Shown in pieces: positions 10,588 through 53,760 of a DNA stretch of 64,000 nucleotides. Under the pieces are notes generated by a model. That model was not told the origin of the DNA. It made no database searches and worked only from the letters and a program-made list of their open reading frames with translations. Source of the DNA: a virus (lineage: Duplodnaviria; Heunggongvirae; Uroviricota; Caudoviricetes); IMG/VR virus record IMGVR_UViG_3300014205_000186, positions 1 through 64,000 of that record; one strand, given 5' to 3'. The position numbers and the translations under genes were made by a program. Each line of letters begins with the position of its first letter. The first letter of the stretch is position 1.

Positions 10588-11464
10588 TAAAATTAGAGTT
10601 ATAATACCTACTCATAACCCCTTATATCTTAAAGAAACATTAACAGCTTTACATCATCAAAACGATAATAATTTTACTGTATTAGTAGTAGAAAACCCAA
10701 CAAAAACTTTCAATGTAGAGCATATATCAGAATATTATATGTTTGAACATATTACTTCTCCTTTAGGTGCTAATAATGCTAGAAACACTGGTATTAATTT
10801 TATTGATTCTCCGGAAGATATTATAATAGCTTTATTAGATGATGATTGTGTTCCAGATAGAGACTGGATTAGAAATATTAGAGAATCATTTAACAACGAT
10901 ACTAAATTAGCGTGTTTAGGTGGTAGAGTTACTTTAAGTACAGACAAAAACCTAACAGCTTTACAATCGCAATACTTAACCAAAATTAATTGGGGAAATA
11001 CTAATCTTTATAGAGAATTACAACCGGGAGAATATATAGCTTCTTGTAATTTAGCTTTTAAAAAATCTGTTTATAATAAAGTTGGCGGGTTTAATGCTAA
11101 TTTAGGATACTTTGGTAAAGATAACTTTATCCCAAACGACGAAGTACTCTTTATAAGAGACTGTGCTAATCATGGTAAGGTCTGTTATAATGATAACATG
11201 AGAGTTCTTCATTTGATTGATGATAGAGTTAATAATAAGTTTTTCTTAAAGAGGGCTTATGGTCAAGGTTATGCTAATATTCTTCTTGAAAGAGAACAGG
11301 GTATAACCGGAAATTGTCATCTTGAAAAGATTTACTATTCTGAGGAAAACACAAAAGATATTGACTTACAAATAGCCAAGCATATAGGAATGTTACACGC
11401 AATTAAAGGGGTAGAGCCATCAAATCAATTTTACTCACTGCTGGAAGAACTGGTTCAAATCTAA
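10580..11464 (+). CDS. family 2 glycosyltransferase
   Basis: RVIIPTHNPLYLKETLTALHHQ...FTVLVVENPT...GANNARNTGINF...ALLDDDCVPDRDW: typical GT2 layout. Confidence 0.7.
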   Translation: MFDKIRVIIPTHNPLYLKETLTALHHQNDNNFTVLVVENPTKTFNVEHISEYYMFEHITSPLGANNARNTGINFIDSPEDIIIALLDDDCVPDRDWIRNIRESFNNDTKLACLGGRVTLSTDKNLTALQSQYLTKINWGNTNLYRELQPGEYIASCNLAFKKSVYNKVGGFNANLGYFGKDNFIPNDEVLFIRDCANHGKVCYNDNMRVLHLIDDRVNNKFFLKRAYGQGYANILLEREQGITGNCHLEKIYYSEENTKDIDLQIAKHIGMLHAIKGVEPSNQFYSLLEELVQI

Positions 11465-11739
11465 TAATAGAGTCCTATATTCAAGCTGGGGCTAATATTG
11501 CTAGTGAACCACTAAACAAAAAATATAATAATTACGAAAGTATTATCGGTTATAAACCCAATCTTATACTTGAAGATAATACTGAAAAGTTAAGAATTAT
11601 AAATAAAACACTAGAGAATTATGATTTATGTAAGATTCTCTATTGTCAATCTAACCTAGAACTAATAAAAGAACTTCAAAAAAGATATAAAATATTACTT
11701 TTAGTAAGAAACGTATTTGATGTAGCTATTTCTTTTAGA

Positions 11740-12075
11740 ATGGCTGAAATACTTCAAAAATGGCATAATCTTGGGGAACCACCAATAACCCCAAAAGAAA
11801 AAGTTATTGTTAGCCCCATCGAGTTTACTAATTATGTTTCTTATTTACTTGAAAATACACTTCAATACTCTAAGTTAAAGATTAGAAAAATATATTTTTA
11901 CGAAGATATTATAAATTACTGGGATTTATTTGTTTCAGATTTTTCTTATGAGGTTGGCTTCGAAGGTAAAGTTGAACAGAAAATAAGAAAGAATCCGGAA
12001 AAACCAAAAGATTTTATTGAAAACTATCAAGAATTAAGAGATATTTATGATAAATTTTACTCAAGATTGGTTTAG
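11740..12075 (+). CDS. hypothetical protein
   Basis: 111-aa ORF. Confidence 0.4.
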   Translation: MAEILQKWHNLGEPPITPKEKVIVSPIEFTNYVSYLLENTLQYSKLKIRKIYFYEDIINYWDLFVSDFSYEVGFEGKVEQKIRKNPEKPKDFIENYQELRDIYDKFYSRLV

Positions 12076-12550
12076 TCACAACATCCCTCTTTTCGAAAAA
12101 TTCCTAAAACCTCTTAAAGATTTAAGAATTTTAGAGATAGGGTCTTTTGAGGGTCGTTCAGCTTTATGGATGATTCAAAATCTCAATCCTAAAAAATTAG
12201 TTCTAGTAGACCCTGGACAAGAAAGTAATATTGTATTAAAATTAAATCTTTCTGGTTTGGATTATACCCTAATTGAGAAACCTAATAATGAAGCTTGGAG
12301 AGATTATATTTTTGAAGAGTTTGATTTTGTTTATGTTGACGGAAGTCATTCTAGTAAAAATTGTTACTTTGATATGATTTTGGGCTGGACAGTTCTTAAA
12401 TCTGGTGGTATAATGGCTATAGATGATTATGCTTGGCCTTTACAGAGCGAAGATCAAACCAGTCCAAAAGAGGCCGTTGATCTATTCTTACAGAGAAAAG
12501 ACTATGTTTTGCTACATAAGAATTACCAAGTTTGGCTTATGAAAAAATAG
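12047..12550 (+). CDS. class I SAM-dependent methyltransferase (TylF/MycF-like O-methyltransferase family)
   Basis: LRILEIGSFEGRSALWM...LVLVDP...FDFVYVDGSHSSKNCYFDMILGWTVLKSGGIMAIDDY. Confidence 0.6.
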   Translation: MINFTQDWFSHNIPLFEKFLKPLKDLRILEIGSFEGRSALWMIQNLNPKKLVLVDPGQESNIVLKLNLSGLDYTLIEKPNNEAWRDYIFEEFDFVYVDGSHSSKNCYFDMILGWTVLKSGGIMAIDDYAWPLQSEDQTSPKEAVDLFLQRKDYVLLHKNYQVWLMKK

Positions 12551-12855
12551 GAGTGATTATGAAACATTTATCTGATTCAGAAGAAATAGAATTTTACAGA
12601 CAAGAATCTTTAAGAAGATTACCAGCTATTTACGGAGATCTTCTAGACGATGTTAAAAAGCAGTTTAATACTGAATTCGGTAGACATGAAGCTCTTGATA
12701 GATCTTTTATGATTAGTTCAAATATTCAAGATTTTTTAACAGATCATCCTTATATTGTTTTTAGACCAGAATGTTATAAACTAGCTTTTCAAGCTAATGA
12801 GTTAATGATGGAATTATATCAGGTTATCGGTAGAAGTGACTTTAATCAGGAATAA
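12532..12855 (+). CDS. hypothetical protein
   Basis: 107-aa ORF. Confidence 0.4.
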   Translation: MAYEKIGVIMKHLSDSEEIEFYRQESLRRLPAIYGDLLDDVKKQFNTEFGRHEALDRSFMISSNIQDFLTDHPYIVFRPECYKLAFQANELMMELYQVIGRSDFNQE

Positions 12856-12858
12856 AAT

Positions 12859-13233
12859 ATGCCAAAAGTAAAACTATTTAGAGTTTATAATACCGGTGGG
12901 TATGAATATGATAATCAAGATGGTATTTTACAACAGTTATCAACAGGATGGCAAGAGATAACTCAAGAAGAGTTAAATTTTCTTACTTCTCCAGAAATGT
13001 ATAAGATGTTTACTGGAAAAAACTATTATATGAATGTTGTTGTTTATGAAGATAAAACAGAAGATATTCCTGTTATGATTGATTCTGTTAAAGAATATAT
13101 AAAGTCTTATAAAGATAAGAAGGAAAAAGAAAAACTTGATAAGCTAAAAAAACAAGAAGAAATTAAAGCTAAAAAAGAAGCTAAAGAAATAGAAAAAGCT
13201 AAAAAGCTTCTTGAAGAAAAGGGTCTATTATAG
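12859..13233 (+). CDS. hypothetical protein with Lys/Glu-rich coiled-coil tail
   Basis: 124 aa; C-terminus KEKEKLDKLKKQEEIKAKKEAKEIEKAKKLLEEKG. Confidence 0.45.
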   Translation: MPKVKLFRVYNTGGYEYDNQDGILQQLSTGWQEITQEELNFLTSPEMYKMFTGKNYYMNVVVYEDKTEDIPVMIDSVKEYIKSYKDKKEKEKLDKLKKQEEIKAKKEAKEIEKAKKLLEEKGLL

Positions 13234-14249
13234 TGTTTATATCAGCCCCAATCAATAGTTTAAGTTACGGTCTAGTATCTCAAAACATACTAGATAATCT
13301 TTCTAACTATAAACTAAAACCTCTTGGTCAATTTGATTCAGCTCAATATAGTAGGTTTATTCCGAAACTTATAAATTATACTGAAGATTTAGATCTAACA
13401 AAGCCTTCTCTTAAAATATTCCATGAAAACCTTTTATTCGATCATATAGGTAAGGGTACTAGAATAGGTTTTCCAATCTTCGAAAGAAATGAATTTACTC
13501 CCGAACATGTTTGGAATTTAAAGCATCAAGATTTGGTTCTAGTGTGTTCTAAATGGGCTAAGGAATTAGTAGAACCAATTAATCCTAATGTTATGGTTTG
13601 CCCTTTAGGTGTTAGTGAAAACTTTAAACCTGGTTATATTCCTAATAATCAAGATAAAGTTATTTTTTATACTCAAGGTAAAAGAGAAGTTAGAAAGGGT
13701 CATAACTATCTTCATAAGGTTTTCCATAAAGCTTTTCAGAATAATAATGATGTAGAATTATGGATGTTTACTCATAACTACTTTGACACACCTGAACAAA
13801 CAAGATCATTCCAGTCTGAATACAAATCTCTATTAGGTAATAAAGTTAAATTCTTTCCTAGATTATCAGAACAGGAAATGATAAACTGGCTTCATAAAAC
13901 AGATTGCGGAATCTTCTTAAGTCGTGCAGAAGGATGGAATATGCCACTTTCTGAAGCTTTAGCAATGGGTAAACAAGTAATAGCTACTTATTATTCTGGT
14001 CATACTGAATACTTAAAGAATGGTATTAATCCTGTTGAGTTTGAACCAGCTATTGACGATAAATGGTTTCATGGAGAATTTACTTGGATGAAAATTGAAA
14101 GTAATGAAGAAGAAATAGTTACCTTATTAAGGGAGAAATACGAATATTGCAAAAATAATAAAGGTCCAGACCCAAAGAGTACAAATCTAGTTAAGAATTA
14201 CACTTGGAAGAACACAGCGGAGATTATAAATGGACTACGCGGATTGTGA
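13233..14249 (+). CDS. GT-B glycosyltransferase (GT1/GT4-like)
   Basis: FLSRAEGWNMPLSEALAMGKQVIATYYSGHTEYL matches the E-x7-E GT4 motif. Confidence 0.6.
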   Translation: MFISAPINSLSYGLVSQNILDNLSNYKLKPLGQFDSAQYSRFIPKLINYTEDLDLTKPSLKIFHENLLFDHIGKGTRIGFPIFERNEFTPEHVWNLKHQDLVLVCSKWAKELVEPINPNVMVCPLGVSENFKPGYIPNNQDKVIFYTQGKREVRKGHNYLHKVFHKAFQNNNDVELWMFTHNYFDTPEQTRSFQSEYKSLLGNKVKFFPRLSEQEMINWLHKTDCGIFLSRAEGWNMPLSEALAMGKQVIATYYSGHTEYLKNGINPVEFEPAIDDKWFHGEFTWMKIESNEEEIVTLLREKYEYCKNNKGPDPKSTNLVKNYTWKNTAEIINGLRGL

Positions 14250-16187: not shown

Positions 16188-16281
16188 AAAGATTTTGACG
16201 GATTGGACTAAAGGTTATGTCGCTAGCCCTTCAAGCTGGAGAAAACGGATCGTTACCGTTATTCGTTATTAAAAAATTTAC

Positions 16282-16392: not shown

Positions 16393-18057
16393 ATGTTTTC
16401 AGCAAAGCAAAGTTCCTTATTAGAAAAGAATCCAAAAGTTCTGGCTAAAGCTAAGAATCAATTTCTTTTTGGCACCGCGAAAGAATCCGCAAAGACCTTA
16501 AGTGGAAATGGGAGTTTAAAATTTTCTGATTCCGGTTCAGAATGGGTTAACCAATTTACTAAGTTGGGAACATTCAAGACTCCAAGAAAATATACTGAAA
16601 TTGTTAGTGATTGTGAAACCTTATGGGCTTTAGATAAAGAATTATGCGTTAAGTTTATTCTTTATATTAGAATGATTAGTCGAAAGACCGATTTAGTTTT
16701 CTTAAATATTAAAACTACAGAAGCTCAAAGTGGAGCAGAACTAAAATATGAAGGTATTATGAGAATGGTTTGGTTGTCTCAAAAGGCACCAGATGTTTTC
16801 TGGAAAAATATTGGATTATTTATCTCTGCCGGATCTTGTAAAGATATTGTTTCTATGTTAAGATATGACCTTGTTTATCATAACTGGGATAATAAGATTT
16901 TAGATTGGGCTAGGTTTGGTAATTTAATTAAGTCTTTATTGGAAAACCCTGCTTCAGTAAACTTAATGAAGAAATATTTACCGCAAATTAAGCCTAATAA
17001 TAAGTGTACTACTGTTGAATCACAAGCTAATAATATTATTGCTAAGTGGATTTGTTCAAGTCTTTTTGGATCTAAGAATGGTTCAACTACGTATAAGCAA
17101 TACAGAAAGTTAAAGACTTCCGGAACTGCTCACGAATGGCAAAAACTTATTTCTCAACAAAAGTTTGACAGAATTGATTTTACTAAGATTCATGGTCGGG
17201 CTTTGAATTTACTTGTTAAGAGCAAGTTTTTAAAGAATCATAACTTACAAAATGTTTATTCTACTTGGATTGATAAACAAAAGACTGTAAAGTATACAGG
17301 ATTTGTTCATGAATTACTTTGTGAATTAGATTCAAACCGGGATTCTAATTTTGAAAAGACTGTCGATAAGCAATTTTTAGAACTTGTTGAAAAGGTTAAA
17401 AATGGAGAAGAAAACTTTACTAAGCTAATTGTTGTAAGAGATACTTCTGGTTCTATGAGTTCAACCGCTACTGGAACGAAGTTTTCTTGTTATAATATTG
17501 CGAAGGCTTTAGCATTATATTTTTCAGAGTTTTTAACTGGACAATTTTCTAATCATTGGATAGAATTTAATAGTAGTGCTAAGTTACATGTTTGGAAGGG
17601 TTCTGGAGCAGTAGCAAAATGGAGAAGCGATAAATCAGGTTTTGTTGGTTCAACTAACTTTCAATCTGTTGTTGATTTGTTTTGTAATATGAAAAGAAAG
17701 GGTGTTCCTGAAGAGGATTTTCCACAGGGTATTTTATGTATTAGCGATGGAGAATTCAATCCAGCACAATTAGGTAAAACAAATGTTGAAGCTGCTAGAG
17801 ATCGTTTAGCCTTAGCTGGATTTTCAAAGGAATATCAAGATAATTTCAAAATAATTCTTTGGAATCTTCAAAGTGGTTATTATGGTGTCGGAACAGGTTG
17901 TAAGTTTGAAACTTTTGGTGATGTTAAAAACGTATTTTATATGTCTGGTTATTCAGCTTCTAATGTTAAGTTTTTATTGAATCAAAAGGTAGAAACTGCT
18001 GAAGACCTGTTTAATACAGCTATGTCACAGGAATTGTTAAATTTAGTTAATGTTTAA
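16393..18057 (+). CDS. vWA/MIDAS-containing protein (TROVE/Ro60-like or DUF2828-like possibility)
   Basis: IVVRDTSGSMSS MIDAS motif near residue 345 of 554; strongest promoter and RBS in the window. Confidence 0.55.
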   Translation: MFSAKQSSLLEKNPKVLAKAKNQFLFGTAKESAKTLSGNGSLKFSDSGSEWVNQFTKLGTFKTPRKYTEIVSDCETLWALDKELCVKFILYIRMISRKTDLVFLNIKTTEAQSGAELKYEGIMRMVWLSQKAPDVFWKNIGLFISAGSCKDIVSMLRYDLVYHNWDNKILDWARFGNLIKSLLENPASVNLMKKYLPQIKPNNKCTTVESQANNIIAKWICSSLFGSKNGSTTYKQYRKLKTSGTAHEWQKLISQQKFDRIDFTKIHGRALNLLVKSKFLKNHNLQNVYSTWIDKQKTVKYTGFVHELLCELDSNRDSNFEKTVDKQFLELVEKVKNGEENFTKLIVVRDTSGSMSSTATGTKFSCYNIAKALALYFSEFLTGQFSNHWIEFNSSAKLHVWKGSGAVAKWRSDKSGFVGSTNFQSVVDLFCNMKRKGVPEEDFPQGILCISDGEFNPAQLGKTNVEAARDRLALAGFSKEYQDNFKIILWNLQSGYYGVGTGCKFETFGDVKNVFYMSGYSASNVKFLLNQKVETAEDLFNTAMSQELLNLVNV

Positions 18058-24346: not shown

Positions 24347-24660
24347 AATGATGCCAACGATGTTTTTGGATATGATTGGGATAAATACAATAAAGATGAA
24401 GAAGACGAAATAAGTAATTTATATAGCAAATATGATTTAGATCCAGATGACTATGATTTTGTCTATAATAAAAATTATCACTTTGAAGATGAATTAAATA
24501 GTATTCAAAATAAATATAATCCGACTTGTAATAAAACAATTAATGGTAAGAGTTATCTTCACGGAACTTTTGGTGGACATAGAGAACATCCTTTAAAAAT
24601 TAGTAAAGAACAGATTATTGAAGCAGTTATTGAAAAAATTAAAACAATGGAAATTAAATG
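24347..24660 (+). pseudogene. coding-like open frame without an ATG start (non-canonical start, frameshifted gene or pseudogene)
   Basis: About 104 sense codons (NDANDVFGYDWDKYNKDEEDEISNLY...HREHPLKISKEQIIEAVIEKIKTMEIK) ending in ATGA overlap with the next gene; the only upstream ATG lies in the +1 frame. Confidence 0.25.
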
Positions 24661-26112
24661 AAAAAACTTAAAAAATCAGAACTACCAGATAACCATTCAT
24701 TTAATGACTTTAAGTCTTTTGGTCCACCTGCTATAAGAGACGGAGAATTTACAGGAACTAAAGTAGCAGATTTTGGATGTTTCGATAACCAAGGCCGCGA
24801 TAGTAATAAATATTATCACGCAGCTATTTGTCAGTCTACTATAAATAATAAATGGTTTGTGTATGTCCAATTTGGTCGTACTGGAAATTCTAAATATGAT
24901 TTTCAATTTTTTGATTGTGATTCTGAACAAGACGCTCAAAAAGCGTATGAGAAACAATGTCATTCTAAAAACGACAAAAGGGGTGAGTGGTATCAGCATC
25001 CACAATTAGGTAAAATCTTAAGAGCTAAAGCTGGAAAAGATTGTTACTTAACTAGGTCTTTTGCTAGTAGAATATCAGCTTTACCAGATGTAGCTAGAAT
25101 ATCTACTAAGAAAATGGTTAAATCTTCGCAATTTGATCCACAAACAGAAACTTTACTTAGAGATTTACAAACCGGAACAGTATCTTATACAAAAAACAAA
25201 TTTTCTTCAGGTATAATTCCTGATTTAGATTCTATTAATCAAGCTAGAACAATTCTTTCTTTAGCAGCTAAAACTAAAAAAGATGACGAACTTACAGAAT
25301 TAACAAAGATTCTTTATAGTAAAATCCCTAAATCTACTTATATAGGTGAAAAAGTAGAATTATCTTCTGAAAATATTAAATCTTGGTATGATGACCTAGA
25401 CGCTTTTGAATCAGCTTTCTCTTCGTTAGAAGACGGATTTGAAAACGTATCTATTAAATACTTATTAAAATATATTGACAAATCAAACCAGTTGTGGTAT
25501 AATATAGAAAGATTAGTGCAGTCTTCAACAAGAGATAGACACGCATATATTCCTGGAAAAATCAAAATTGAACATATTTGGGAGATTACTAATGTTCCTA
25601 AATCGTTTTTAGATGAACAGGAAAGAATTGCTAAAGAGTTTAAAGGAATTGGTTTCCCGTTAATTTTTCAGCCAGAAAGAACAGAATTAGAGAAAAGGTC
25701 GAATTGTCAGCTACTAATACACGGTTCTCGTAGTTGCAATATTGGAGGTATTATTTCTACTGGTTTTAGACTTCCTAAAGATTTAAGCGGAGTAGCTATT
25801 AATGGGGCAAATTTAGGACCAGGAGCGTATCATGCTTCAGATTATAAAAAGTCTGCTGGTTATTGTTCTATTAAAAATGGTTATTGGTCTAGTGGTTCTG
25901 GATCTATTTCTAATAGAAAAGCTTTTATATTTTTAAATGATGTTATTCTTGGTAATCCACACGTTGTAAGTAGACCGCAGGGATTTAATAAACCGCCAGT
26001 AGGCTATCATAGTGTTATAGCAGATACTAAAGGAAGCTTTCAAAATGAAGAATTTGTTGTTTTTTCAGTAGAGCGTTTTTATCCTAGGTTTTTAATAGAA
26101 TTCGATCTTTAG
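24658..26112 (+). CDS. PARP-like ADP-ribosyltransferase (WGR domain + PARP catalytic domain)
   Basis: WGR-like KWFVYVQFGRTGNSKYDFQFFDCDSEQDAQKAYEKQ; catalytic H-Y-E elements LLIHGSRS, GPGAYHASD, NEEFVVFSVERFYPRFLIEF. Confidence 0.7.
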   Translation: MKKLKKSELPDNHSFNDFKSFGPPAIRDGEFTGTKVADFGCFDNQGRDSNKYYHAAICQSTINNKWFVYVQFGRTGNSKYDFQFFDCDSEQDAQKAYEKQCHSKNDKRGEWYQHPQLGKILRAKAGKDCYLTRSFASRISALPDVARISTKKMVKSSQFDPQTETLLRDLQTGTVSYTKNKFSSGIIPDLDSINQARTILSLAAKTKKDDELTELTKILYSKIPKSTYIGEKVELSSENIKSWYDDLDAFESAFSSLEDGFENVSIKYLLKYIDKSNQLWYNIERLVQSSTRDRHAYIPGKIKIEHIWEITNVPKSFLDEQERIAKEFKGIGFPLIFQPERTELEKRSNCQLLIHGSRSCNIGGIISTGFRLPKDLSGVAINGANLGPGAYHASDYKKSAGYCSIKNGYWSSGSGSISNRKAFIFLNDVILGNPHVVSRPQGFNKPPVGYHSVIADTKGSFQNEEFVVFSVERFYPRFLIEFDL

Positions 26113-27948: not shown

Positions 27949-28275
27949 ATGAGAAGTTTTAATTTATGGGTTGGTTCTGGAAGATTAACAAGAGATATCG
28001 AATTACAGTATACTTCTACTGGTAAAGCTATTGGAAAAGGTGCTATAGCTGTAAACAGAAAACAAGGAGATACTGAAAAAACTTTATTTCTAGATTTTGA
28101 TGTTTGGGAAAAAGCTGCTGAAATTCTTACTGAGCATACCAAGAAAGGTTCTAATTTATTATTAAAGGGTAGATTAGATATGGACACTTGGGAAAAAGAC
28201 GGTAAGAAAGGCTCTAAAATATATTTAGTAGTAGAGGATTTTCAGTTTTTAGACAAGAAAGAAAAAGATGAATAA
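27949..28275 (+). CDS. ssb: single-stranded DNA-binding protein (OB-fold SSB)
   Basis: MRSFNLWVGSGRLTRDIELQYTSTGKAIGKGAIAVNR...LLLKGRLDMDTWEKDGKKGSKIYLVV: SSB-like pattern with acidic tail. Confidence 0.65.
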   Translation: MRSFNLWVGSGRLTRDIELQYTSTGKAIGKGAIAVNRKQGDTEKTLFLDFDVWEKAAEILTEHTKKGSNLLLKGRLDMDTWEKDGKKGSKIYLVVEDFQFLDKKEKDE

Positions 28276-28906
28276 TAATAAATCACATTTATGCGTAGTA
28301 ATGGATAGAAGCGGTTCTATGTCAAATATCGCAAAAGACATGGAAGGCGGGCTTAATAGCTTTATTAAAGAACAAAAAGAACTTCCTGGAGAATTAACAG
28401 TAAGTTTTTATAGATTTGATGATTTTTGTGAAAGAGTTATAGATTTTATTCCTGTTAAAATGGTAGGAGAATTAAAGCTGGAACCTAGAAATATGACAGC
28501 TTTAAATGATGCTATTGGAAAAGCTGTTAAAGAAACAGGAGAAGCATTAGCAAAAATGAAGGAAGAAGATAGACCAGCACTTGTCACAATAATGATTATC
28601 ACAGATGGTGGTGAAAATTCTTCTAGAGAATATACTGCTGAAATGGTAAAACAAATGGTTACCGAACAAGAAACTAAATATAATTGGAAGTTTACTTATC
28701 TAGGGGCTAATCAGGATTCTTTTAGTGTTGCTAGTAACTATGGAATTAATTTAACAGGCGTATCAAATTATGCAGTAGCTAATTCAGAAAAAGTATGGCA
28801 TGATTATAATAATAAAATGCTTAGAGCAAGAAGTGTAAGTGCTTCTGGCGGAAACGCAAGTATGGCTTATAGCGGAGTTGAAAGAGACGCATTAGAAGCG
28901 GAATAA
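28268..28906 (+). CDS. vWA (von Willebrand factor A) domain protein
   Basis: MIDAS motif CVVMDRSGSMSN plus vWA-like ITDGGENSS. Confidence 0.7.
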   Translation: MNNNKSHLCVVMDRSGSMSNIAKDMEGGLNSFIKEQKELPGELTVSFYRFDDFCERVIDFIPVKMVGELKLEPRNMTALNDAIGKAVKETGEALAKMKEEDRPALVTIMIITDGGENSSREYTAEMVKQMVTEQETKYNWKFTYLGANQDSFSVASNYGINLTGVSNYAVANSEKVWHDYNNKMLRARSVSASGGNASMAYSGVERDALEAE

Positions 28907-28968
28907 TATTAACGTTCTCAAAAGAGATTTTATTTTACATTACTTTAAACAATTAAGAAAAATTAAAA

Positions 28969-30111
28969 ATGCAACAGAAAAATAATGGATTTACTTTAGT
29001 GGAATTATTGGTTGTAATAGCTATTATTGGAATTTTAGTAGGATTACTATTACCAGCAGTACAAGCCGCTAGAGAAGCAGCAAGGCGAATGCAATGTTCA
29101 AATAACTTAAAACAAATAGGATTAGGTGTTCATAATTTTGAATCATCTTATAAGAAAACTCCATCAGCAGGACAATGTGGTTCAACTGGTTCTACAACAA
29201 CTCCTTATATGATTCATTCAACAGCTACTCAGTTATTACCATATATTGAACAAACAAGTATTTATAATTTATTTGATCATAATACTATACCATTTACTTT
29301 ATATGGTGCCACAAAGGTTGGAAATAATTATGTTTCATCAACTGGTTGTGTGTTACACCCAAATGCTAAAGGTTTAGCTTATGACGATCCTAATCATCCA
29401 AACGGACAAGTAGCAGCAAAAAGTCATATTTCAACATTTGTTTGTCCAACAACTCCGTTAGGTAAAGAGGGAAGAGATCCTTCTGGATATGGTGGATGGG
29501 ATTATATGTTTATTGACCTAACAGATATTATGGAAAATCAAACAAGTCCGCTTTTTGGAACTAGAACAACTCCTGTTGGAGGTACTTTATGGACTTCTCA
29601 AGTAAAAAAGGGAATGCTAACTTGTGATAATACTGGTTTTGGATCTGTTACAGATGGTTTAAGTAATACAATTTTATGTGTTGAAGACGCTGGTAGAGCC
29701 GCTCCTGGAGTTGCAACTTTTGGCGCTCTATCATCTAGAAAAACACCTGTTCCAAATCCAGTAGATATGATTCAAATGATTAATGGTAGTCATGGTAGAA
29801 GAATGCACGCTTGGGCTGATGCTGACGCTGTTACAAATGGTTTTAGCGGTCCTAGTAATTCTACTGGAAATAAAGCCGCAAAAGTAAACAATAGTAAATT
29901 ACCTATTGGTGGACCACCAGAATGCAGATGGAGTTTAAATAATTGCGGGCCTAATGATGAACCTTTTAGTTTTCATAACGGTGGTATTAATTGTGTTATG
30001 GGAGACGGTGCAGTTAAATTTATTGCAGATTCAGTAGACGCTATTTCTTTAAAGTGGACTGTATCTGGTTCTGATGGAAATATTGTAGATATAGATAAGG
30101 TTATTAATTAA
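28969..30111 (+). CDS. DUF1559 protein with prepilin-type N-terminal cleavage/methylation domain (Planctomycetes-type pseudopilin-like)
   Basis: N-terminus [51 protein letters not shown]; C-terminus [24 protein letters not shown]; both are hallmark DUF1559 signatures. Confidence 0.8.
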
Positions 30112-30365
30112 TGATTGTTAAAACCCTTTGTGGTATACTACTTAATCTTTTAATATTTTCTGTTGGGATTAATATATATTTATTTTTCCCTTATCAGGCA
30201 GCTATGTTAGAAAACGCTTCGTTAAAAGAAAGCTTATTTAGTGTTAAAAGGTATAATACTCTATTATTAATTGATAACACATACTATGAAGAAGAAAATT
30301 TAAGATTAAAAGAAGAAATTCTTACTATAGAGAAATATGTTAGTGTTTTAGACTGGAGTAAATAA
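30111..30365 (+). CDS. small membrane protein
   Basis: 84 aa with an N-terminal TM helix. Confidence 0.4.
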   Translation: MIVKTLCGILLNLLIFSVGINIYLFFPYQAAMLENASLKESLFSVKRYNTLLLIDNTYYEEENLRLKEEILTIEKYVSVLDWSK

Positions 30366-30936: not shown

Positions 30937-31470
30937 ATGTTAATGTCTATTACACTTACTATAGTAATATGTATACTTATTGCAGATTTTCTAACCGGTT
31001 TGTTTCATTGGGTACAAGAAGTTTATTGCGATGAAGAATATCCAATTATTGGCAACGCGATATGTAAACACAATCTAGATCATCATAAAGATCCAACTTT
31101 AATGGTTAGTATGAGTGGTATTATTACAACAAACTGGCAATCTATGAGTTTGGCAATGTTTGTTTGCTTATTATTTTGGATTTTTGGGATGTTTCATTGG
31201 TCGGTTTTACTTACGTTGATATTAACAGGGTTTGGTAATCAGGTTCATTTATGGAATCATCAAGCAAAAAGCGGTTATTTGGTACAGTTTTTAAAAGATT
31301 CCGGTCTAATCCAATCTCAAAAGCAGCATAGTCAGCATCATATCCCGCCATATAAAAGATGTTATTGTGTTCTTATTAACTTTAACAATGCTGTTTTAGA
31401 TAGAATATATTTTTGGAGAGGTTTAGAAAAAGTTATTGAAAAAGTTTTAGGAATTAAGACGAAAAGGTAG
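30937..31470 (+). CDS. integral membrane protein with histidine-box motifs (desaturase/hydroxylase-like)
   Basis: Multiple TM helices; His clusters HNLDHHKD, HLWNHQ and HSQHH. Confidence 0.4.
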   Translation: MLMSITLTIVICILIADFLTGLFHWVQEVYCDEEYPIIGNAICKHNLDHHKDPTLMVSMSGIITTNWQSMSLAMFVCLLFWIFGMFHWSVLLTLILTGFGNQVHLWNHQAKSGYLVQFLKDSGLIQSQKQHSQHHIPPYKRCYCVLINFNNAVLDRIYFWRGLEKVIEKVLGIKTKR

Positions 31471-33860: not shown

Positions 33861-36800
33861 ATGTATACATACGAAGAAGCATTAAATAACAGTATTAAAT
33901 ATTTTAATGGAAATGAATTATCAGCAAAAGTATTTTTAGATAAATATGCGTTAAGAGATAGTAATAATAAGATTCTGGAAGATACTCCAGATAAAATGCA
34001 TAGAAGATTAGCTAAAGAATTTGCTAGAATAGAAAAAAATAAGTTTGAAAAGCCACTGAACGAAGAAGAAATATATACTTTATTTAAAAATTTTTCTCAT
34101 ATAATTCCTCAAGGTTCTCCATGTTTTGCTATAGGTAATAACTATCAAATAGCTAGTGCTAGTAATTGTTTTGTTTTAGAGTCTCCGGAAGATAGTTATG
34201 GCGGGATTTGTAAAACTGATGAAGAATTAGTCCAAATATCTAAAAGGCGTGGTGGTGTCGGTATAGACTTATCTAAATTAAGACCAAAAGGATCAGCCAC
34301 AAATAATTCTTCTAGATCATCTACCGGAATAAAATCTTGGATGACTAGATATTCAAATAGTATTAGAGAAGTTGGTCAATCTGGTCGTCGTGGCGCACTT
34401 ATGTTAACAGTTAGCGTTCATCATCCAGATATACTTGATTTTATTACTGCTAAAAATAACGGAATAGATATTACAGGGGCAAATATTTCTGTTAGATTAA
34501 CAGATGAATTTTTAAAAGCTGTAGAAAATAATAAAGAATATGAACTAAGGTTTCCAGTTGATTCTAAAAATGTTGTTAAAACAATTTCCGCAAACGAAAT
34601 ATGGAATTTAATTATTGATAACGCTTGGTCTAGAGCAGAACCAGGAATATTATTTTGGGATAACATATTAAAAGAATCTATTCCAGATTGTTACGAAGAA
34701 TATAAAACTATTAGTACGAACCCATCCTTAAGAAAAGGAACGTTGATTTTAACTAGTGAAGGACCAAGAAGAATTGAAACTTTAGAAAATTCTGAATTTC
34801 AAGTCTATAATTTAAACCATTCTTATTCTAAGGCTGTTTGTAAATTATCAGGAAAAAATCAAGAATTATACGAAGTAGAACTATCAAGTTGTTTTAAGTA
34901 TTATGCCACAAAAGAACATAGATGGGCAACTAATAATGGAGAAAAAACAACTTTAGAATTGTTACCCGGTGATAAAATTCCAATCCTTAAAAAGGACAAA
35001 GTTTTTAATGGTAATTTAGGAACAAGAGAAGACGGATTTTTAATAGGTTGGTTTTTAGGTGATGGATGGTTAACTGTTAGAAAAGATAACAATAAAAATC
35101 AATATGGATTTATAATTTCAGAAAAAGATAAAAATAGTAAAATTGGTGATATTATTTTATCTAAATTAAGACAAATAGGATTCAATGGCGAATGGATAGA
35201 AAGAAGTAGAGAAAATGCAATTTGGTATGAAATTAATACACAAAATAGTAAACTAGAAGATTATTTTAATTTATTTTATAATCCATGTAAAAATAAAGGT
35301 ATATCAAAAGAACTATTAGAAAAATCTTCCGAAGAATTTATAAAAGGTTTAGTTGATGGATATTTATCTTCAGATGGAAGTATTGATGAAAAAAGACAAA
35401 AAATAACTTTTGTATCAAAAAATAAAAAACTTTTAGAAGATTTTTCTGAAATTTTTGGTTTTTATGGAATTAGAAGTTCGATTAGATCTTCAGAATCTAA
35501 ATCTAGTTTTCCTAATGGTAAAAATTATAATAAAAAATATAAAAGAAACGATCTATATATATCCGATTCAGACTCAATAAAGCATTTTCAAAAATTGTTT
35601 AATTTATCATTAGATTATAAAGAAGAAAAATTAAGAAAAATGCTTGTTAGAAAATCTAATAATATAAATTACGTAAAAGTAAAAAATGTTAATAAAACAG
35701 ATCTAAAAGAAGACGTTTGGGATATTACCGTTAATGATAATAATAATTGTTTTAGTTTAAGTCATTGTATAACCCATAATTGTGGAGAAATTACTCTTAG
35801 TGCTAATGATAGTTGTCGTTTATTAGTTATTAATTTAATGAATTTTGTTAGATATCCATTTGATTCTAATGCATATTTTGATTTTATGGAATTTTATCAA
35901 TCTGCTCAAATAGCACAAAGATTAATGGATGATATTGTTGATTTAGAATTAGAAAAAATAGATACTATAATTCAAAAGATAAAAAAAGATCCAGAAGATA
36001 TTCTTTTAAAAAGAACAGAATTAAATTTATGGCAAAATATTGAAAGGGCTTGTGAATTTGGTAGAAGAACAGGTTTGGGGATTACTGCTTTAGGTGATAC
36101 TATTGCAGCTTGTGGTATTAAATATGGTTCTGATGAAAGTATAGAATTTACAGAAAAGGTTTATAAAACTTTAAAATTTGGCTCTTATAGATCTTCCGTA
36201 GATATGTCTAAAGAGCTTGGGTCATTTCCAGCTTGGAATTGGGAAAACGAAAAAAATAATCCTTTTCTATTAAGAATTAAAAATGAATTTCTATATTTAG
36301 CCCAAGAAGATTTATTTGAAGTACCTTTTCCATATGATTCATTATTAAACGGAGAAGATTTATATAACGATATAGCTAAATATGGTCGTAGAAATATAGC
36401 TAATTTAACTACTGCTCCAGTTGGTTCTTTATCTATTCTAGCATCGTATTTAATTTCCTTAAAAAGATTATTTAATACTACATCTGGAATAGAACCTTTA
36501 TATAGCTGGAAACCGTTTACTAAACGTAAAAAGGGAAACCCTGGTGATAATGATTTTAGAACCGATTTTATAGATCAAAGTGGGGATCATTGGATGGATT
36601 TTGATGTTTTTCATAGCGGTATTACAGCTTTTTTAAATAAAAATCCTGGTTCAACTGTAGAAGATTCTCCTTATTATGGTGGAAGCGCAGAAGAAATAGT
36701 TTGGACACAAAGAGTTAAATTACAAGCCGCCGCTCAAAAACACGTAGATCATAGTATTTCTAGTACTGTTAATTTACCCGAAAATGTTTCTAAAGAAGAA

Positions 36801-37397
36801 GTCGATAAAATATATCGAGAAGCATGGAAAAGTGGGTGTAAAGGGATTACAGTATATAGAGACGGTTGTAGAACCGGGGTCTTAATTAAAAAAGAAGAAA
36901 AACTTGCTTTAACTAATGCTACAAAAAGACCAAAATCATTATCTTGTGATATTTATAACATTTCGGTAACTAATAATAAATATACTGTTGTTGTTGGTTT
37001 ACTTAACGGAAATCCTTACGAAGTATTTTGTGTAGCTAATTTTATTGATAAACATAAACATGGAGAACTTGTTAAGGCTGGTAAAGGGAAATATGTTATT
37101 AAGACAACAGACGGAGAGTTAGAATTATCAGATTATTTAGAAGATGATACTCAAAATGCTCTATTAAGAATGGTTTCTACAAGTTTAAGACATGGTGCTA
37201 GTATTAAGTTTGTGATAGAACAGTTACAGAAAACTAAAGGTGATCTAACTAGTTTTACTAAGTGTGTTGCTAGAGCGCTTAAAAAGTATATTCAAGATGG
37301 TGATGGTTCTAGTGAGAAGTGCGAATGTGGAAATCAGCTTATCTATCAAGAAGGCTGTTTAACTTGTAAAAGTTGTGGCTATAGCAAATGTAATTAA
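33861..37397 (+). CDS. nrdJ: class II (adenosylcobalamin-type, NrdJ-like) ribonucleotide reductase interrupted by an intein
   Basis: Extein motif TNP|CGEITL split by a 352-aa insertion; C-terminal Zn ribbon CECGN...CLTCKSCGY; RNR-like conserved blocks. Confidence 0.8.
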   Translation: MYTYEEALNNSIKYFNGNELSAKVFLDKYALRDSNNKILEDTPDKMHRRLAKEFARIEKNKFEKPLNEEEIYTLFKNFSHIIPQGSPCFAIGNNYQIASASNCFVLESPEDSYGGICKTDEELVQISKRRGGVGIDLSKLRPKGSATNNSSRSSTGIKSWMTRYSNSIREVGQSGRRGALMLTVSVHHPDILDFITAKNNGIDITGANISVRLTDEFLKAVENNKEYELRFPVDSKNVVKTISANEIWNLIIDNAWSRAEPGILFWDNILKESIPDCYEEYKTISTNPSLRKGTLILTSEGPRRIETLENSEFQVYNLNHSYSKAVCKLSGKNQELYEVELSSCFKYYATKEHRWATNNGEKTTLELLPGDKIPILKKDKVFNGNLGTREDGFLIGWFLGDGWLTVRKDNNKNQYGFIISEKDKNSKIGDIILSKLRQIGFNGEWIERSRENAIWYEINTQNSKLEDYFNLFYNPCKNKGISKELLEKSSEEFIKGLVDGYLSSDGSIDEKRQKITFVSKNKKLLEDFSEIFGFYGIRSSIRSSESKSSFPNGKNYNKKYKRNDLYISDSDSIKHFQKLFNLSLDYKEEKLRKMLVRKSNNINYVKVKNVNKTDLKEDVWDITVNDNNNCFSLSHCITHNCGEITLSANDSCRLLVINLMNFVRYPFDSNAYFDFMEFYQSAQIAQRLMDDIVDLELEKIDTIIQKIKKDPEDILLKRTELNLWQNIERACEFGRRTGLGITALGDTIAACGIKYGSDESIEFTEKVYKTLKFGSYRSSVDMSKELGSFPAWNWENEKNNPFLLRIKNEFLYLAQEDLFEVPFPYDSLLNGEDLYNDIAKYGRRNIANLTTAPVGSLSILASYLISLKRLFNTTSGIEPLYSWKPFTKRKKGNPGDNDFRTDFIDQSGDHWMDFDVFHSGITAFLNKNPGSTVEDSPYYGGSAEEIVWTQRVKLQAAAQKHVDHSISSTVNLPENVSKEEVDKIYREAWKSGCKGITVYRDGCRTGVLIKKEEKLALTNATKRPKSLSCDIYNISVTNNKYTVVVGLLNGNPYEVFCVANFIDKHKHGELVKAGKGKYVIKTTDGELELSDYLEDDTQNALLRMVSTSLRHGASIKFVIEQLQKTKGDLTSFTKCVARALKKYIQDGDGSSEKCECGNQLIYQEGCLTCKSCGYSKCN
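34725..35780 (+). mobile_element. LAGLIDADG-type intein inside the RNR gene (352 aa)
   Basis: Begins with Ser after TNP, ends ...SHCITHN followed by Cys+1; two LAGLIDADG motifs GWFLGDGWL and LVDGYLSSDGS. Confidence 0.75.
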
Positions 37398-43447: not shown

Positions 43448-43940
43448 TGATAAAATTAATCTTTTAAGAGAATTACTATCTGATGACGATGTTAGAGAAA
43501 CGTTAAAAAAGATTTTATTAGAAGACCGTCCTAAAAAAGCGGTTAAAAAGAAAACTGTAACAAGCCCAAAGACTAAAGTAAAAGCAGTAGTTAAAAAGAC
43601 TACTACTAGAAAACCAAGAGTTAAGAAGCAGGAAGAACAAGAAAATTTTAAAACTAACAAGGTTGATAAATACTCAAAAGATTATGGAAGAAGTCACTTT
43701 GTTGATAATTTAACAGAAGCTCTTGAAGAAGAAGTTGAAGGTAAAAAAATAAATTTAATAGCAGAAAGTAAGAAGTTATCTAAGATAGCTAAAAAGAAAC
43801 CAAAGCAGATTAGACCTAAAAAGACTTTAAGTAAATTAAAATGTACTCAGTGTAATAAACACTTTTTTGGTGTAGGTGGATATTTGTGTGATAATTGTTT
43901 GAAAGGTAAAAACCCAGAGGATAAATTTAATGCTGAGTGA
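43440..43940 (+). CDS. basic Lys-rich protein with C-terminal zinc ribbon (probable DNA-binding)
   Basis: KKAVKKKTVTSPKTKVKAVVKKTTTRKPRVKK; CTQCNKHF...CDNC. Confidence 0.45.
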   Translation: MDNDKINLLRELLSDDDVRETLKKILLEDRPKKAVKKKTVTSPKTKVKAVVKKTTTRKPRVKKQEEQENFKTNKVDKYSKDYGRSHFVDNLTEALEEEVEGKKINLIAESKKLSKIAKKKPKQIRPKKTLSKLKCTQCNKHFFGVGGYLCDNCLKGKNPEDKFNAE

Positions 43941-46326
43941 TAAAGGTTGTGAAAGAGCTGTTTTATCTGGAATTTGTCAATATGGAGCAGAAGGATTTTT
44001 TGAAGTAAATGATATTTTGGATTCTTCTGTCTTTACAGATATTTCTAATCAGATTATTTTTTCTTGTTTAGAATATTTATTTGCCGCAGATATTAAGAAA
44101 GTAGATATTCCAGGTATCTTTTCTGCTGCGAATTCTTTAAAGTTCGAAAAACAAATTTGTGAGTCTAAGCAAAACCAAGAGTTTATTAGGTCGCTTTTTA
44201 ACTTCCCTATAGAGCTATCTAACTTGCGTTCTTACGCGATCAAAATAGTAAACCTATCCATAGCTAGAAACGCCCAAGGGAAGCTACAGAAGGCTTACAG
44301 AGAGCTTGAAGGGGTCACAGGAGACGAAGATACAGATAAGATAATAGAAATAACAGAATCTCCTTATTCAGAATTAATGAGAGAGCTTGTTAGGACAGAA
44401 GATGGCGGAGATATTGGTGAAGATATTGAAGAATATGTTAAAAATAAATTTGATAATCCAGTTAAAAATGTAGGTATACCTTCTCCTTTTCCTATATTTA
44501 ATAGTGTTATTGGTGATGGATTAAGAACAGGTGTACATTTAGTCGCGGCAAGATTGAAAGCTCTTAGATATGGTTCTAAAGTTTATACTAAAACTGGACC
44601 TATTAATATAGAAGATTGTAAAATTGGCCAAGAAATAGCTACTCCAACGGGTTTTGCTAAAATTGATGGGGTTCAAGATTTTCAAAACAAAGATATTTAT
44701 AGAGTTTATTTTAAAGATGGTGATTATGTAGATTGTTGTGAGGATCATATCTGGAGCGTAACTAAAGCTCATGATAGAAAAAAAAGAGAAGTATTAAAAA
44801 CAACAAAAGAATTAATAAATTACGGTATTTATAAAAATGGAAAAAAAAATAATAGATACTACTGGAATATTAAAATGCCAGAACCAGTATTATTTGAAGA
44901 TAAAAGTGTTCCAATAGACCCATATATACTAGGCTGTTTAATTGGTGATGGTTCTTTTAGAAATTCTATAACTTTGAGCGGTAATGATAAAGAAATTTTT
45001 GATTATTTTTATGAAAATCTTAAAGAATATAAAATAAAGGTTGAAAAATCTAATTGTGGATGTATTAGAATAAATAGTTTTCAAAATAAAATTAGAGAAG
45101 TTGGTCTTTATAAAGTAAAAGCTAGGTATAAATTTATACCAAAACAATATATTTATAATAATATAGAAACTAGATTAGAGATTCTTAGAGGATTGATGGA
45201 CACAGATGGTACTTGTGTGGTAAATCCAAGATCTAAAAATTCTAGATCTATATTTGGTACAACTTCTATTCAATTAGCAAAAGATATTAAAGAAATAGTT
45301 TGTTCTTTAGGAGGATTATGTAGTATTAAAAGGGTTAACCAAATATATAAAGGAAAACCATATTTATCATACAGTTGTGAAATAAGACTGGAAAACTTTA
45401 ATGTTTTTAAATTAAAAAGAAAAGCAGATAGAGTAACTGGTAGATTTTATAAAGTTAAAAGAATTATTTCCAAAATAGAAAAAGTTGGAGTTGATAATAC
45501 TAGGTGCATTAAAGTAAACTGTCCAAACGAGCTATTTTTAACAGATAATTATATAGTTACTCATAATACTGGAAAAAGCACCTTTGCTAAAGAAGTTGGG
45601 ATTCATGTTGCTAAAAATCTTAAAATACCAGTATTATTCATTGATAGCGAAATGAGTACAGAAGAACAAAAAGATAGAATCTTAGCAAGTATTGCAGAAT
45701 TAGATATTAGAAAAGTTGAAAAGGGCGGCTTATCACAAGCAGAAAAGGATAAATTAATCTATTCGGCTAAAGAACTGAAAAATATACCGTTTAAACATGA
45801 AAAAATAGCCGGGAAACCATTCAAAGAAGTTTTATCATTAATAAGACGCTGGATTAATCACAAGGTTGGTTATGGAGACGACGGTAAAGCTAATCCACAT
45901 CTTGTTATATATGATTATTTTAAACTAATGGATGTGGGAGATTTAAAAAATGCACAAGAATACCAATTAATGGGCTTTCAAATAGCTGCTTTACATGATT
46001 TTTGTACCGAAAATAATACGCCAGTTCTTTCGTTTGTACAAATTAATAGAGATGGAATTAATAAAGAATCAACAGATGTTATTGCTCAATCTGACAGATT
46101 AGGCTGGAATGCTATATCTTTAAGTATTTGGAAAAGAAAAACCCCAGAAGAAATTGGTCAAAATCCCAAAGCTGGTACGCACAAATTAGTTCCTTTAGAA
46201 GGTCGTTTTATGTCTAAACTTGATCCTGGAGATTATATTAATTATTATTTTGATGAAGCCAAATCTAAAATTACAGAGTTAAAAACAAGGTTTCAAAGTG
46301 AATCAGCAGATTTCGGACAAAATTGA
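43930..46326 (+). CDS. dnaB: DnaB-like replicative helicase interrupted by an intein in the P-loop
   Basis: Exteins ...GVHLVAARLK + TGKSTFAKEVG reconstitute a DnaB Walker A (AARPSMGKTTF-like); downstream DnaB-like IDSEMSTEEQ. Confidence 0.75.
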   Translation: MLSDKGCERAVLSGICQYGAEGFFEVNDILDSSVFTDISNQIIFSCLEYLFAADIKKVDIPGIFSAANSLKFEKQICESKQNQEFIRSLFNFPIELSNLRSYAIKIVNLSIARNAQGKLQKAYRELEGVTGDEDTDKIIEITESPYSELMRELVRTEDGGDIGEDIEEYVKNKFDNPVKNVGIPSPFPIFNSVIGDGLRTGVHLVAARLKALRYGSKVYTKTGPINIEDCKIGQEIATPTGFAKIDGVQDFQNKDIYRVYFKDGDYVDCCEDHIWSVTKAHDRKKREVLKTTKELINYGIYKNGKKNNRYYWNIKMPEPVLFEDKSVPIDPYILGCLIGDGSFRNSITLSGNDKEIFDYFYENLKEYKIKVEKSNCGCIRINSFQNKIREVGLYKVKARYKFIPKQYIYNNIETRLEILRGLMDTDGTCVVNPRSKNSRSIFGTTSIQLAKDIKEIVCSLGGLCSIKRVNQIYKGKPYLSYSCEIRLENFNVFKLKRKADRVTGRFYKVKRIISKIEKVGVDNTRCIKVNCPNELFLTDNYIVTHNTGKSTFAKEVGIHVAKNLKIPVLFIDSEMSTEEQKDRILASIAELDIRKVEKGGLSQAEKDKLIYSAKELKNIPFKHEKIAGKPFKEVLSLIRRWINHKVGYGDDGKANPHLVIYDYFKLMDVGDLKNAQEYQLMGFQIAALHDFCTENNTPVLSFVQINRDGINKESTDVIAQSDRLGWNAISLSIWKRKTPEEIGQNPKAGTHKLVPLEGRFMSKLDPGDYINYYFDEAKSKITELKTRFQSESADFGQN
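44560..45567 (+). mobile_element. LAGLIDADG-type intein in the helicase (N-terminal boundary ambiguous: Ala at 44560 or Cys at 44617)
   Basis: Hint block A-like ALRYGSKVYTKTGPINIED / CKIGQEIATPTGFAKIDGV; block B DHIWSV; LAGLIDADG LGCLIGDGSF and LRGLMDTDGT; ends IVTHN then Thr+1. Confidence 0.65.
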
Positions 46327-51862: not shown

Positions 51863-51961
51863 TGGAAAGTAAAATACATGGATATATTTATTTAATTACT
51901 AAAATATTTAAAACTTTAGAAGATGCAATAAAATTTAAAACAAATATAGACAAGGAAAACA

Positions 51962-53166: not shown

Positions 53167-53384
53167 TGTTTTTTAAAAAGCAAAAAGAAAAAGAGAGCAA
53201 GTATACTGAAGGTTTTAATGCTGCGTATTATTCACATAGTAATAGTAAAAACCCGTACAACTATCTTAAAGAAGAAAAAGAGCATAGAGAATGGTTTACT
53301 GGATATACGGACGGTATTAATGCTACAAATATTATGATGAATAAAAGTATTTTTAATTATAGCAACCCAAAATGTAGTGGATAA
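53136..53384 (+). CDS. hypothetical protein
   Basis: 82-aa ORF. Confidence 0.35.
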   Translation: MGVLRKRVEIMFFKKQKEKESKYTEGFNAAYYSHSNSKNPYNYLKEEKEHREWFTGYTDGINATNIMMNKSIFNYSNPKCSG

Positions 53385-53386
53385 AA

Positions 53387-53734: not shown

Positions 53735-53760
53735 AAATAAATTATTAAATAGGATGAAAA

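Follow-up and report, generated by a model that had tools for sequence, protein, structure and literature searches.

The stretch of DNA analysed here, referred to as the window, comprises 64,000 nucleotides (positions 1 to 64,000 of the IMG/VR virus record IMGVR_UViG_3300014205_000186) and carries a gene for a DUF1559 / H-X9-DG prepilin-type, pseudopilin-like protein. This gene is very probably host-derived, acquired once from a Pirellulaceae bacterium by the ancestor of a group of phages and kept by selection. The gene and its parts are as follows:

28969..30111, plus strand: DUF1559 / H-X9-DG prepilin-type (pseudopilin-like) gene, the sole open reading frame (ORF) with an ATG start there, 380 amino acids (aa)
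28969..28989, plus strand: predicted class III (prepilin) leader MQQKNNG, from the sequence and the N_methyl and TIGR02532 matches
28990..29151, plus strand: hydrophobic N-terminal segment and long alpha-1 helix, residues 8-61 (AlphaFold2 helix 10-61; PDB sequence matches)
29062..30039, plus strand: DUF1559 globular domain, residues 32-357, an enlarged alpha/beta pilin-like head
29962..30024, plus strand: C-terminal H-X9-DG motif region (H336 ... D346 G347), from TIGR04294 and the invariant residues

An earlier note on this DNA, made from its letters, had described the ORF as a DUF1559 pseudopilin-like gene with hallmark N- and C-terminal strings. Both strings are present in the translation (residues 7-52 and 334-357), and the two Pfam models that the note proposed for a scan matched above their cut-offs. 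The match to PF07596 (DUF1559/SBP_bac_10; E=1.1e-47, 163.7 bits against a gathering score of 23.3) spans residues 32-357 and profile positions 1-266 of 268, which is its full length, and the match to PF07963 (N_methyl; E=9e-9, 34.9 bits against 21.2) covers residues 4-28. The NCBIfam models of the H-X9-DG C-terminal domain (TIGR04294; 32.4 bits, cut-off 19, residues 332-352) and of the prepilin N-terminus (TIGR02532; 30.1 bits, cut-off 16.3) bear out the same description, and chance is ruled out as the source of these family matches. Cleavage of the leader is predicted after G7, which would make F8 the new N-terminus (+1) and place E12 at +5. F8, E12, H336, D346 and G347 are invariant among 56 homologs, and the conserved cysteines of the globular domain are C43, C70, C159, C319 and C326. 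A prepilin-type N-terminus occurs once in the window, in the DUF1559 gene only. The same gene, with intact ATG and leader, is present on an ENA contig of 179,427 bp with 99.99% identity to the window; a loss of the leader, suggested by a 370-aa gene call on that contig, was rejected, as the call reflects an alternative choice of start codon only.

In the AlphaFold2 model based on the 56 homologs, which is a confident one (pLDDT 86.1, pTM 0.83), residues 10-61 form a long N-terminal helix, and a large alpha/beta head comes after it. Foldseek searches with this model gave nothing significant in the PDB and no similar structure among the BFVD viral proteins. The fold matches include EpsG and PulG, none in the PDB reaching significance. 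In the PDB profile search, the matches were confined to the N-terminal helix (geopilin, PilA, GspG), and no solved or viral structure in the PDB and BFVD covers the head domain. The GspG model TIGR01710 matched residues 7-69 only (E=3e-8), its 33.7 bits falling below the equivalog cut-off of 88.85. NCBI gives one of the relatives the name 'DUF1559 family PulG-like putative transporter'. A periplasmic solute-binding protein, to which the Pfam name SBP_bac_10 alludes, was rejected because neither the structure nor the sequence searches gave support for its two-lobed fold.

The window has a guanine plus cytosine (GC) content of 29.5% (35.2% in the DUF1559 gene), has nearly all of its ORFs on one strand and represents the replication and nucleotide-metabolism part of a phage genome of at least 179 kb. 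The replication genes encode a DnaE-type polymerase in pieces, DnaB, primase, RecA, an ATP-dependent ligase and a single-stranded DNA-binding protein (SSB), and the nucleotide genes a ribonucleotide reductase (RNR) with an intein, ThyA, dCMP deaminase, NT5C, dGTP diphosphohydrolase and MazG. Also encoded are ClpP, RNase T, PhoH, HNH endonucleases, many glycosyltransferases and three to four tRNAs, while capsid, tail and terminase genes are absent from the 64 kb. A relative in IMG/VR (L098, 29% GC), found by a scan anchored on the dCMP deaminase, is collinear with the window over 32-46 kb and ends before the position of the DUF1559 gene; a second IMG/VR scan, with the PARP-like gene as its anchor, gave no match. 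The nearest isolate phages are less than 35% identical in the polymerase. A literature search on the sample accessions yielded no information on the habitat. The assignment of the contig to a phage in the earlier note is thus upheld by the gene content and by L098, and the source of the window is accepted as a large uncultured phage.

Among 5.8 billion proteins, only two are more than 72% identical to the DUF1559 protein, namely P0001 (88%) and P0002 (78%). These are encoded on contigs of about 9 kb (L016 and L017; 29-30% GC), which have in common with the window the gene order PARP-like, SSB, VWA-like, DUF1559, NT5C, lipid desaturase, dGTP diphosphohydrolase and dCMP deaminase. The remaining protein matches are 59-71% identical, and many of them are found on contigs of up to 3.5 Mb. 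All 80 of the 80 best loci among the GTDB species representatives belong to Planctomycetota (57-71% identity), mostly to Pirellulaceae, Pirellula and other Pirellulales metagenome-assembled genomes (MAGs), along with two complete Pirellulaceae genomes. The GTDB ortholog loci have 49-70% GC, and the phage gene is 65-71% identical to one conserved Pirellulaceae ortholog group. The family as a whole comprises 58,630 cluster representatives at E<=1e-10, and the narrow subfamily holding the phage protein comprises 396 at E<=1e-30.

The trees were built by neighbour-joining on corrected p-distances, with the phage clade of the window consisting of three copies. In the first tree (200 taxa, 325 columns, 100 bootstraps), these copies were monophyletic in 100/100 replicates, and their clade was sister to a cellular clade of Planctomycetia/Pirellulaceae MAGs (L018-L025) in 77/100. 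Therefore, the monophyly and the nesting among Pirellulaceae orthologs indicate one acquisition, in the common ancestor of the three phages. A metagenome scan anchored on the lipid desaturase yielded distant relatives only, none of them with a DUF1559 gene. In the marine ones (TARA contigs L115-L117), which share with the window the desaturase, ThyA, ClpP, SSB and one glycosyltransferase, this absence holds for the 10 kb around the desaturase. Presence of the gene is accordingly an accessory trait, confined to the close phage subgroup.

The GC content at third codon positions (GC3) of the DUF1559 gene is 0.131, against a phage mean of 0.18 (standard deviation 0.03) and a median of 0.564 in the cellular orthologs (range 0.478-0.908). 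The three phage copies show a synonymous divergence (dS) of 0.67-0.87 and a ratio of nonsynonymous to synonymous divergence (dN/dS) of 0.11-0.20, and with 78-88% identity among phages the gene is one of the best-conserved in its region. It lies in the same neighbourhood in independent assemblies from different samples (L001, L148, L016 and L017). These data show that the gene is old in the phage and has been maintained under purifying selection. In 78 cellular orthologs, 140 alignment columns reach a conservation of 90% or more, and at 134 of these the consensus is present in all three phage copies. The joint deviations of the three copies at conserved columns are T231L, H245A, S348A and G366S; each phage copy has 4-6 deviations in total, and the cellular orthologs have 0-9. 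The distance to the outgroup clade (0.465 for the phage, 0.447 for the cellular sister clade) reveals no acceleration. The phage protein evolves like an ordinary ortholog, and this degree of conservation and this rate argue for a working protein and against a degenerate decoy or poison subunit.

The gene had been taken in the earlier note as a pointer to a host from the Planctomycetes-Verrucomicrobia-Chlamydiae (PVC) group. The 80 loci from Planctomycetota, none of the best ones leading to a lineage outside PVC, and the nesting of the phage clade in Pirellulaceae orthologs support this pointer and sharpen it, so that the phylogeny of this one gene suggests Pirellulaceae as the likely host. The protein can function only in a cell with a matching processing and assembly system, which supports the host link. 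The phage tRNAs (Glu-TTC, Tyr-GTA, Asn-GTT) serve amino acids with A/T-rich codons, and these, together with nucleotide synthesis of its own, would be expected of an AT-rich phage in a GC-richer host. A second, weak hint comes from the VWA-like neighbour, whose sole organism-named match is the planctomycete Limnoglobus roseus. Two points speak against this host assignment. It is drawn from a single gene, the donor of which need not be the present host. Moreover, the contrast in GC content that the earlier note had remarked on is real (29.5% in the phage, 50-70% at the host loci), and with a gap of 20-25 points a composition-based or k-mer host prediction would therefore not agree with it.

The occurrence of DUF1559 genes in other phages was also considered. 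A tblastn search against 50,697 GenBank phage records gave no match, and the six pilin-like PHROG families that match the protein do so in residues 1-64 only, none covering the globular domain. In IMG/VR, 14 loci carry DUF1559 genes, with no flanking genes in common with the window:

L002-L004 and L014: 34-38% GC, with virion structural protein, baseplate, RNA ligase and sigma factor genes
L007-L012: 32-33% GC, with thymidylate synthase and endonuclease genes
L005: 40% GC, a 173-kb contig with a T4-type RNA ligase gene
L006 (0.60 GC), L013 (0.50) and L015 (0.60): host-like GC, which may be host or prophage DNA

Each of these groups has a different nearest relative of its DUF1559 gene, and other phage-like contigs carry other paralogs; at least three further uncultured phage lineages carry DUF1559 genes. 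The remark in the earlier note that this family had not been seen in a phage therefore stands for cultured and GenBank phages (0 of 50,697 records, no PHROG family for the head, nothing in BFVD) and falls for uncultured ones, given the 14 IMG/VR loci. A DUF1559 gene in a phage is thus new for cultured and GenBank phages only; no published report of a phage-encoded DUF1559 protein was found in a literature search.

A search with the L004 copy revealed a large second phage clade (66-93% identity, contigs of up to 315 kb, 35% GC). The nearest clearly cellular relative of this clade is P0416 (66%), from an 8.8-8.9-Mb genome with 57% GC, and the named matches to the L004 copy at 55-57% identity are Gemmataceae. 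In a refined tree (178 taxa, 361 columns), the two phage clades were separate, each with its own cellular relatives, in 100/100 replicates. This separation therefore indicates independent captures of the same DUF1559 subfamily, out of about 70 paralogs per genome, by two unrelated phage lineages, the second of which drew on another planctomycete lineage. In the second phage clade, a DUF6428 gene is located directly upstream of the DUF1559 gene on the opposite strand (L107/L108 9382-9840; L105 6037-6492), and in the nearest cellular genome a DUF6428 gene is found about 1.5 kb upstream of the ortholog, in an ars-like cluster (ArsR, MIP, LMWPc). A joint capture of the DUF6428 and DUF1559 genes, or a functional link between them, is possible.

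In cells, the ortholog has a companion at most loci. A lipoprotein-like gene of about 123 aa with weak CarboxypepD_reg similarity follows about 13 nt downstream on the same strand at 64 of the 78 cellular loci, and the same arrangement occurs in an 8.9-Mb genome outside the Pirellulaceae set. The cellular loci have no other conserved neighbour and no second DUF1559 paralog within 6 kb. This lipoprotein partner was found at no phage locus and nowhere in the window, either with a hidden Markov model (HMM) of the partner or by tblastn, and the scan of window ORFs yielded no prepilin peptidase. The lack of both genes therefore implies reliance on the host for processing and assembly, and for the partner if it is needed; the absence of these genes at the phage loci shows this dependence on host factors. 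Planctomycetes hold many members of the family, with 68 DUF1559 paralogs, two of them essential, in Planctopirus limnophila (PMC10632474) and 74 in Rhodopirellula baltica (PMC2754498).

The immediate surroundings of the gene in the window are the following:

28268..28906, plus strand: VWA-like protein, 212 aa, with a MIDAS-like DRSGSMS motif (VWA_2 E=3e-4, below the cut-off; phrog_7371 E=7e-55)
28907..28968, plus strand: AT-rich intergenic region of 62 nt upstream of the DUF1559 gene, from sequence and alignment
30111..30365, plus strand: small ORF of 84 aa with an N-terminal hydrophobic segment, overlapping the DUF1559 stop codon (ATGA)

The VWA-like gene adjoins the DUF1559 gene in all three phages (L016 4114-4764; L017 3258-3908), on the other side in L017. 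Among phages it is about 50% identical, against 78-88% for the DUF1559 gene, and its family is widespread (about 210 aa, many members named YegL-like) and not specific to planctomycetes. As a functional partner it was rejected, because it belongs to the widespread phage family phrog_7371 despite the conserved adjacency. The 84-aa ORF gave no Pfam, PHROG or PADLOC match and no tblastn match in L016 and L017; as an equivalent of the cellular lipoprotein partner it was also rejected, as it has no HMM or tblastn similarity to it and no lipobox, and is absent from L016 and L017. Within the upstream region, the stretch TTTACATTACTTTA is also conserved in L016. Matches to this motif in the window are about as many as chance would give (6, against 5.4 expected), and promoter or terminator evidence for an independent transcription unit was not obtained, the consensus scan giving no enrichment over shuffled sequences. 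PADLOC gave no defence-system match for the DUF1559 gene or its neighbours.

Several other genes of the window deserve mention. The DnaE-type polymerase is spread over at least three ORFs, an N-terminal part (49395-51212), a finger domain with a Hint/intein-like N-terminal fragment (53761-54654) and a C-terminal part (55586-56731), between which lie ClpP, an RNase T-like exonuclease, small ORFs and a Vsr-like endonuclease (54672-55607); the broken gene (49395-56731) may represent a split intein or a fragmented polymerase. The RNR large subunit (33861-37397, 1178 aa) contains an intein with a LAGLIDADG endonuclease, and 572 aa of it align in L098. In the DnaB-like helicase (43930-46326, 798 aa), an insert at about residues 204-549 that matches 'terminase' and primase PHROGs is probably another intein. 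The lipid desaturase (30937-31470; PF10520, E=1e-37) is conserved in all three phages at 75% identity, its copies in the TARA contigs L115-L117 are 37-38% identical, and more homologs occur on many metagenome contigs that differ widely in GC. An auxiliary role in membrane lipids is possible for this gene. A 484-aa protein with a PARP catalytic domain and a WGR domain (24658-26112) is 87% conserved in L016 and has no PADLOC match, and the 378-aa ORF after it has no family match. At least seven glycosyltransferase genes (GT2, GT4, CAP59-like) and an O-methyltransferase gene form two clusters (9700-14249 and 57199-63328); their number is unusually high for a phage replication region, and their targets may be DNA or a surface glycan. 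Between tRNA genes lies a 554-aa 'RNA-binding protein' (16393-18057; phrog_850, E=4e-34). A Ro60/Y-RNA module at this position was considered, but an Rfam scan at the gathering threshold gave tRNAs only. The tRNAs lie at 16196 (found by ARAGORN only), 18761, 19515 and 5980 (found by Rfam only). A homolog with 36% identity to an SPFH/Band-7 protein of the window (4787-5881, 364 aa; PHROG name 'lipoprotein') is encoded at positions 16012-17010 of L006, a 229-kb IMG/VR contig with 60% GC and a DUF1559 gene of its own, possibly of planctomycete or prophage origin.

As to function, infected cells would express the phage gene as part of the replication and nucleotide-metabolism block, and the host prepilin peptidase would remove the 7-residue leader and methylate F8. 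The hydrophobic N-terminal helix would then anchor the protein in the inner membrane, where the host type II secretion or type IV pilus-like machinery may assemble it in place of, or alongside, the host ortholog, working with the host-encoded lipoprotein partner that the phage did not take. Such a subunit swap might alter the fibre as it is seen by other phages and lead to exclusion of superinfecting phages or competitors. Since practically all host-conserved residues are retained, the phage copy should be a working and not a defective subunit. Processing, assembly, replacement and exclusion are steps that we infer, and by analogy with known phages a replacement subunit that gives superinfection exclusion is the reading tentatively preferred here, with somewhat less than even confidence. 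Exclusion, which had been raised in the earlier note, is plausible given the precedent of a prophage FimU that enters the pilus, preserves its function and blocks tip-binding phages (PMC12952977). PilA-like genes are carried by Xylella prophages and by virulent phages of four groups, and an exclusion role has been proposed for the phage PilA homologs (PMC12952977). The protein from the window resembles these in being encoded by a phage, in its homology to a host fibre subunit and in its preserved assembly determinants, as is visible from its nesting in the host clade and from the 134 of 140 conserved columns.

Some observations tell against exclusion. Phage-versus-phage competition has made the phage copies of FimU highly diverse (PMC12952977), and no such diversity is seen in the three copies studied here, with their 78-88% identity and dN/dS of 0.11-0.20. 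Plain purifying selection with no diversification fits a housekeeping-type role at least as well. Moreover, the ortholog group, which is 55-71% identical between the Pirellulaceae set and the Gemmataceae-containing group, is more like a core GspG-like pseudopilin than an exposed receptor, and DUF1559 has been assigned no function in the literature found (PMC10632474, PMC2754498). A broader and more doubtful proposal is that DUF1559 proteins, the largest paralog family of Planctomycetes, are subunits of a planctomycete surface fibre or crateriform apparatus that phages use as a receptor or for entry. Unrelated large AT-rich phages would then have captured one conserved ortholog repeatedly (at least twice in the same subfamily, with other paralogs in further lineages) and would deploy it as a functional replacement subunit to exclude competitors.

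The closest competitor of replacement with exclusion, possible but of somewhat lower probability, is maintenance in the manner of psbA, in which the phage supplies a functional copy of a heavily used or short-lived envelope subunit, so that the secretion or uptake fibre system of the host would go on working after the shutdown of host expression and sustain the nutrient or energy supply during a long infection of a slow-growing host, with no exclusion involved. Neither its constraint pattern nor its rate sets the phage copy apart from a normal ortholog, its dN/dS is 0.11-0.20, and its neighbours are auxiliary and nucleotide genes (NT5C, lipid desaturase, dGTP diphosphohydrolase, dCMP deaminase, RNR, MazG, PhoH). 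The captured subfamily is the best-conserved one found here, at the 55-71% given above, and two phage lineages have converged on it. In Planctopirus, moreover, no paralog family is larger than DUF1559, of which two members are essential (PMC10632474), and planctomycete fibres bind dextran and have a proposed role in macromolecule uptake (PMC5394234). However, no precedent was found for the upkeep of a pilus or secretion subunit by a phage, and a two-component function would still need host expression, as the lipoprotein partner is not carried.

Unlikely is a dominant-negative poison or decoy, a phage subunit that blocks assembly of the pilus or of type II secretion and shuts down the fibre. 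Its N-terminal assembly helix is near-identical to that of the host proteins, there are the four phage-specific changes at conserved positions (T231L, H245A, S348A, G366S), and phages are known to shut down type IV pili, as has been suggested for truncated PilA-like proteins of Pseudomonas phages (PMC12952977). A poison, however, needs the N-terminal helix only, whereas here the whole 350-residue head is under purifying selection. The 134 intact columns include all conserved cysteines and the H-X9-DG motif, there is neither truncation nor rate acceleration, and the number of deviations is within the cellular range. Interference with the host pilus or type II secretion, suggested in the earlier note, is therefore not favoured, given the host-conserved residues, the host-like rate and the purifying selection. 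By far the least probable explanation is that the gene is a neutral passenger or an artefact, such as recently acquired host DNA, a chimera of the assembly or a host contig misclassified as viral. The window has no capsid, tail or terminase genes, and L006, L013 and L015 have host-like GC, but a GC3 at or below that of other phage genes and far from the host values (0.48-0.91), the same neighbourhood in four independent assemblies, and a dS that, with its low dN/dS, means long retention under selection all contradict it. With a gene content typical of a large phage and with L098 catalogued as viral, this explanation is effectively refuted. Replacement of the host subunit with exclusion of other phages thus ranks ahead of maintenance, which in turn ranks above a poison and well above an artefact.

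Planctomycete phages are almost absent from culture, and large uncultured phages usually come without a host assignment. A gene nested in the Pirellulaceae branch of a phylum-restricted family offers a specific, testable assignment despite a GC gap of more than 20 points. If the broader proposal on the surface apparatus is true, planctomycete phages would have in this gene their first sequence-based host marker, and it would give the first experimental access to what DUF1559 proteins do. The convergence of phages on one conserved ortholog, kept intact without its lipoprotein partner, singles out that DUF1559 member. If the proposed replacement is true, the strategy of replacing a host pilus subunit would extend to a new protein family and a new phylum.

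Compared with known systems, the phage protein is closest in sequence to the cellular DUF1559/H-X9-DG proteins of Planctomycetota, as it matches all defining models in full length and keeps all invariant residues. It differs from them in its ameliorated codon usage, its 7-residue leader, its single copy and the lack of a downstream CarboxypepD_reg-like lipoprotein gene. The N-terminal 60-70 residues (leader, F+1, E+5 and helix) are nearer to GspG/PulG than to other pilins, but the head is about three times larger and unrelated in sequence, and the gene is not part of a gsp operon. With cyanophage auxiliary genes of the psbA, phoH and mazG type it has in common the capture from a host, the amelioration, the purifying selection and the vicinity of PhoH, MazG and nucleotide genes; clade nesting, GC3, selection and a non-structural context all mark it as a host-derived auxiliary gene. 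Its product, however, is an envelope protein of structural or transport type and not a metabolic enzyme. The nearest functional parallel is found in the prophage FimU (P-FimU) and phage PilA-like proteins (Sztanko et al., Cell Rep 2026, PMC12952977), which are likewise phage-encoded homologs of prepilin-type subunits that keep the processing and assembly features and need the host machinery, are predicted to substitute for a host subunit and, in the PilA-like examples, occur in virulent phages too. Whereas those pilins have about 130-170 residues, the protein described here belongs to the DUF1559/H-X9-DG family with a head of about 350 residues, and in contrast to P-FimU its incorporation and exclusion role are predicted ones, its copies are conserved (dN/dS 0.11-0.20), its phage is large and apparently lytic, and its host is presumably a planctomycete and not Pseudomonas or Xylella.

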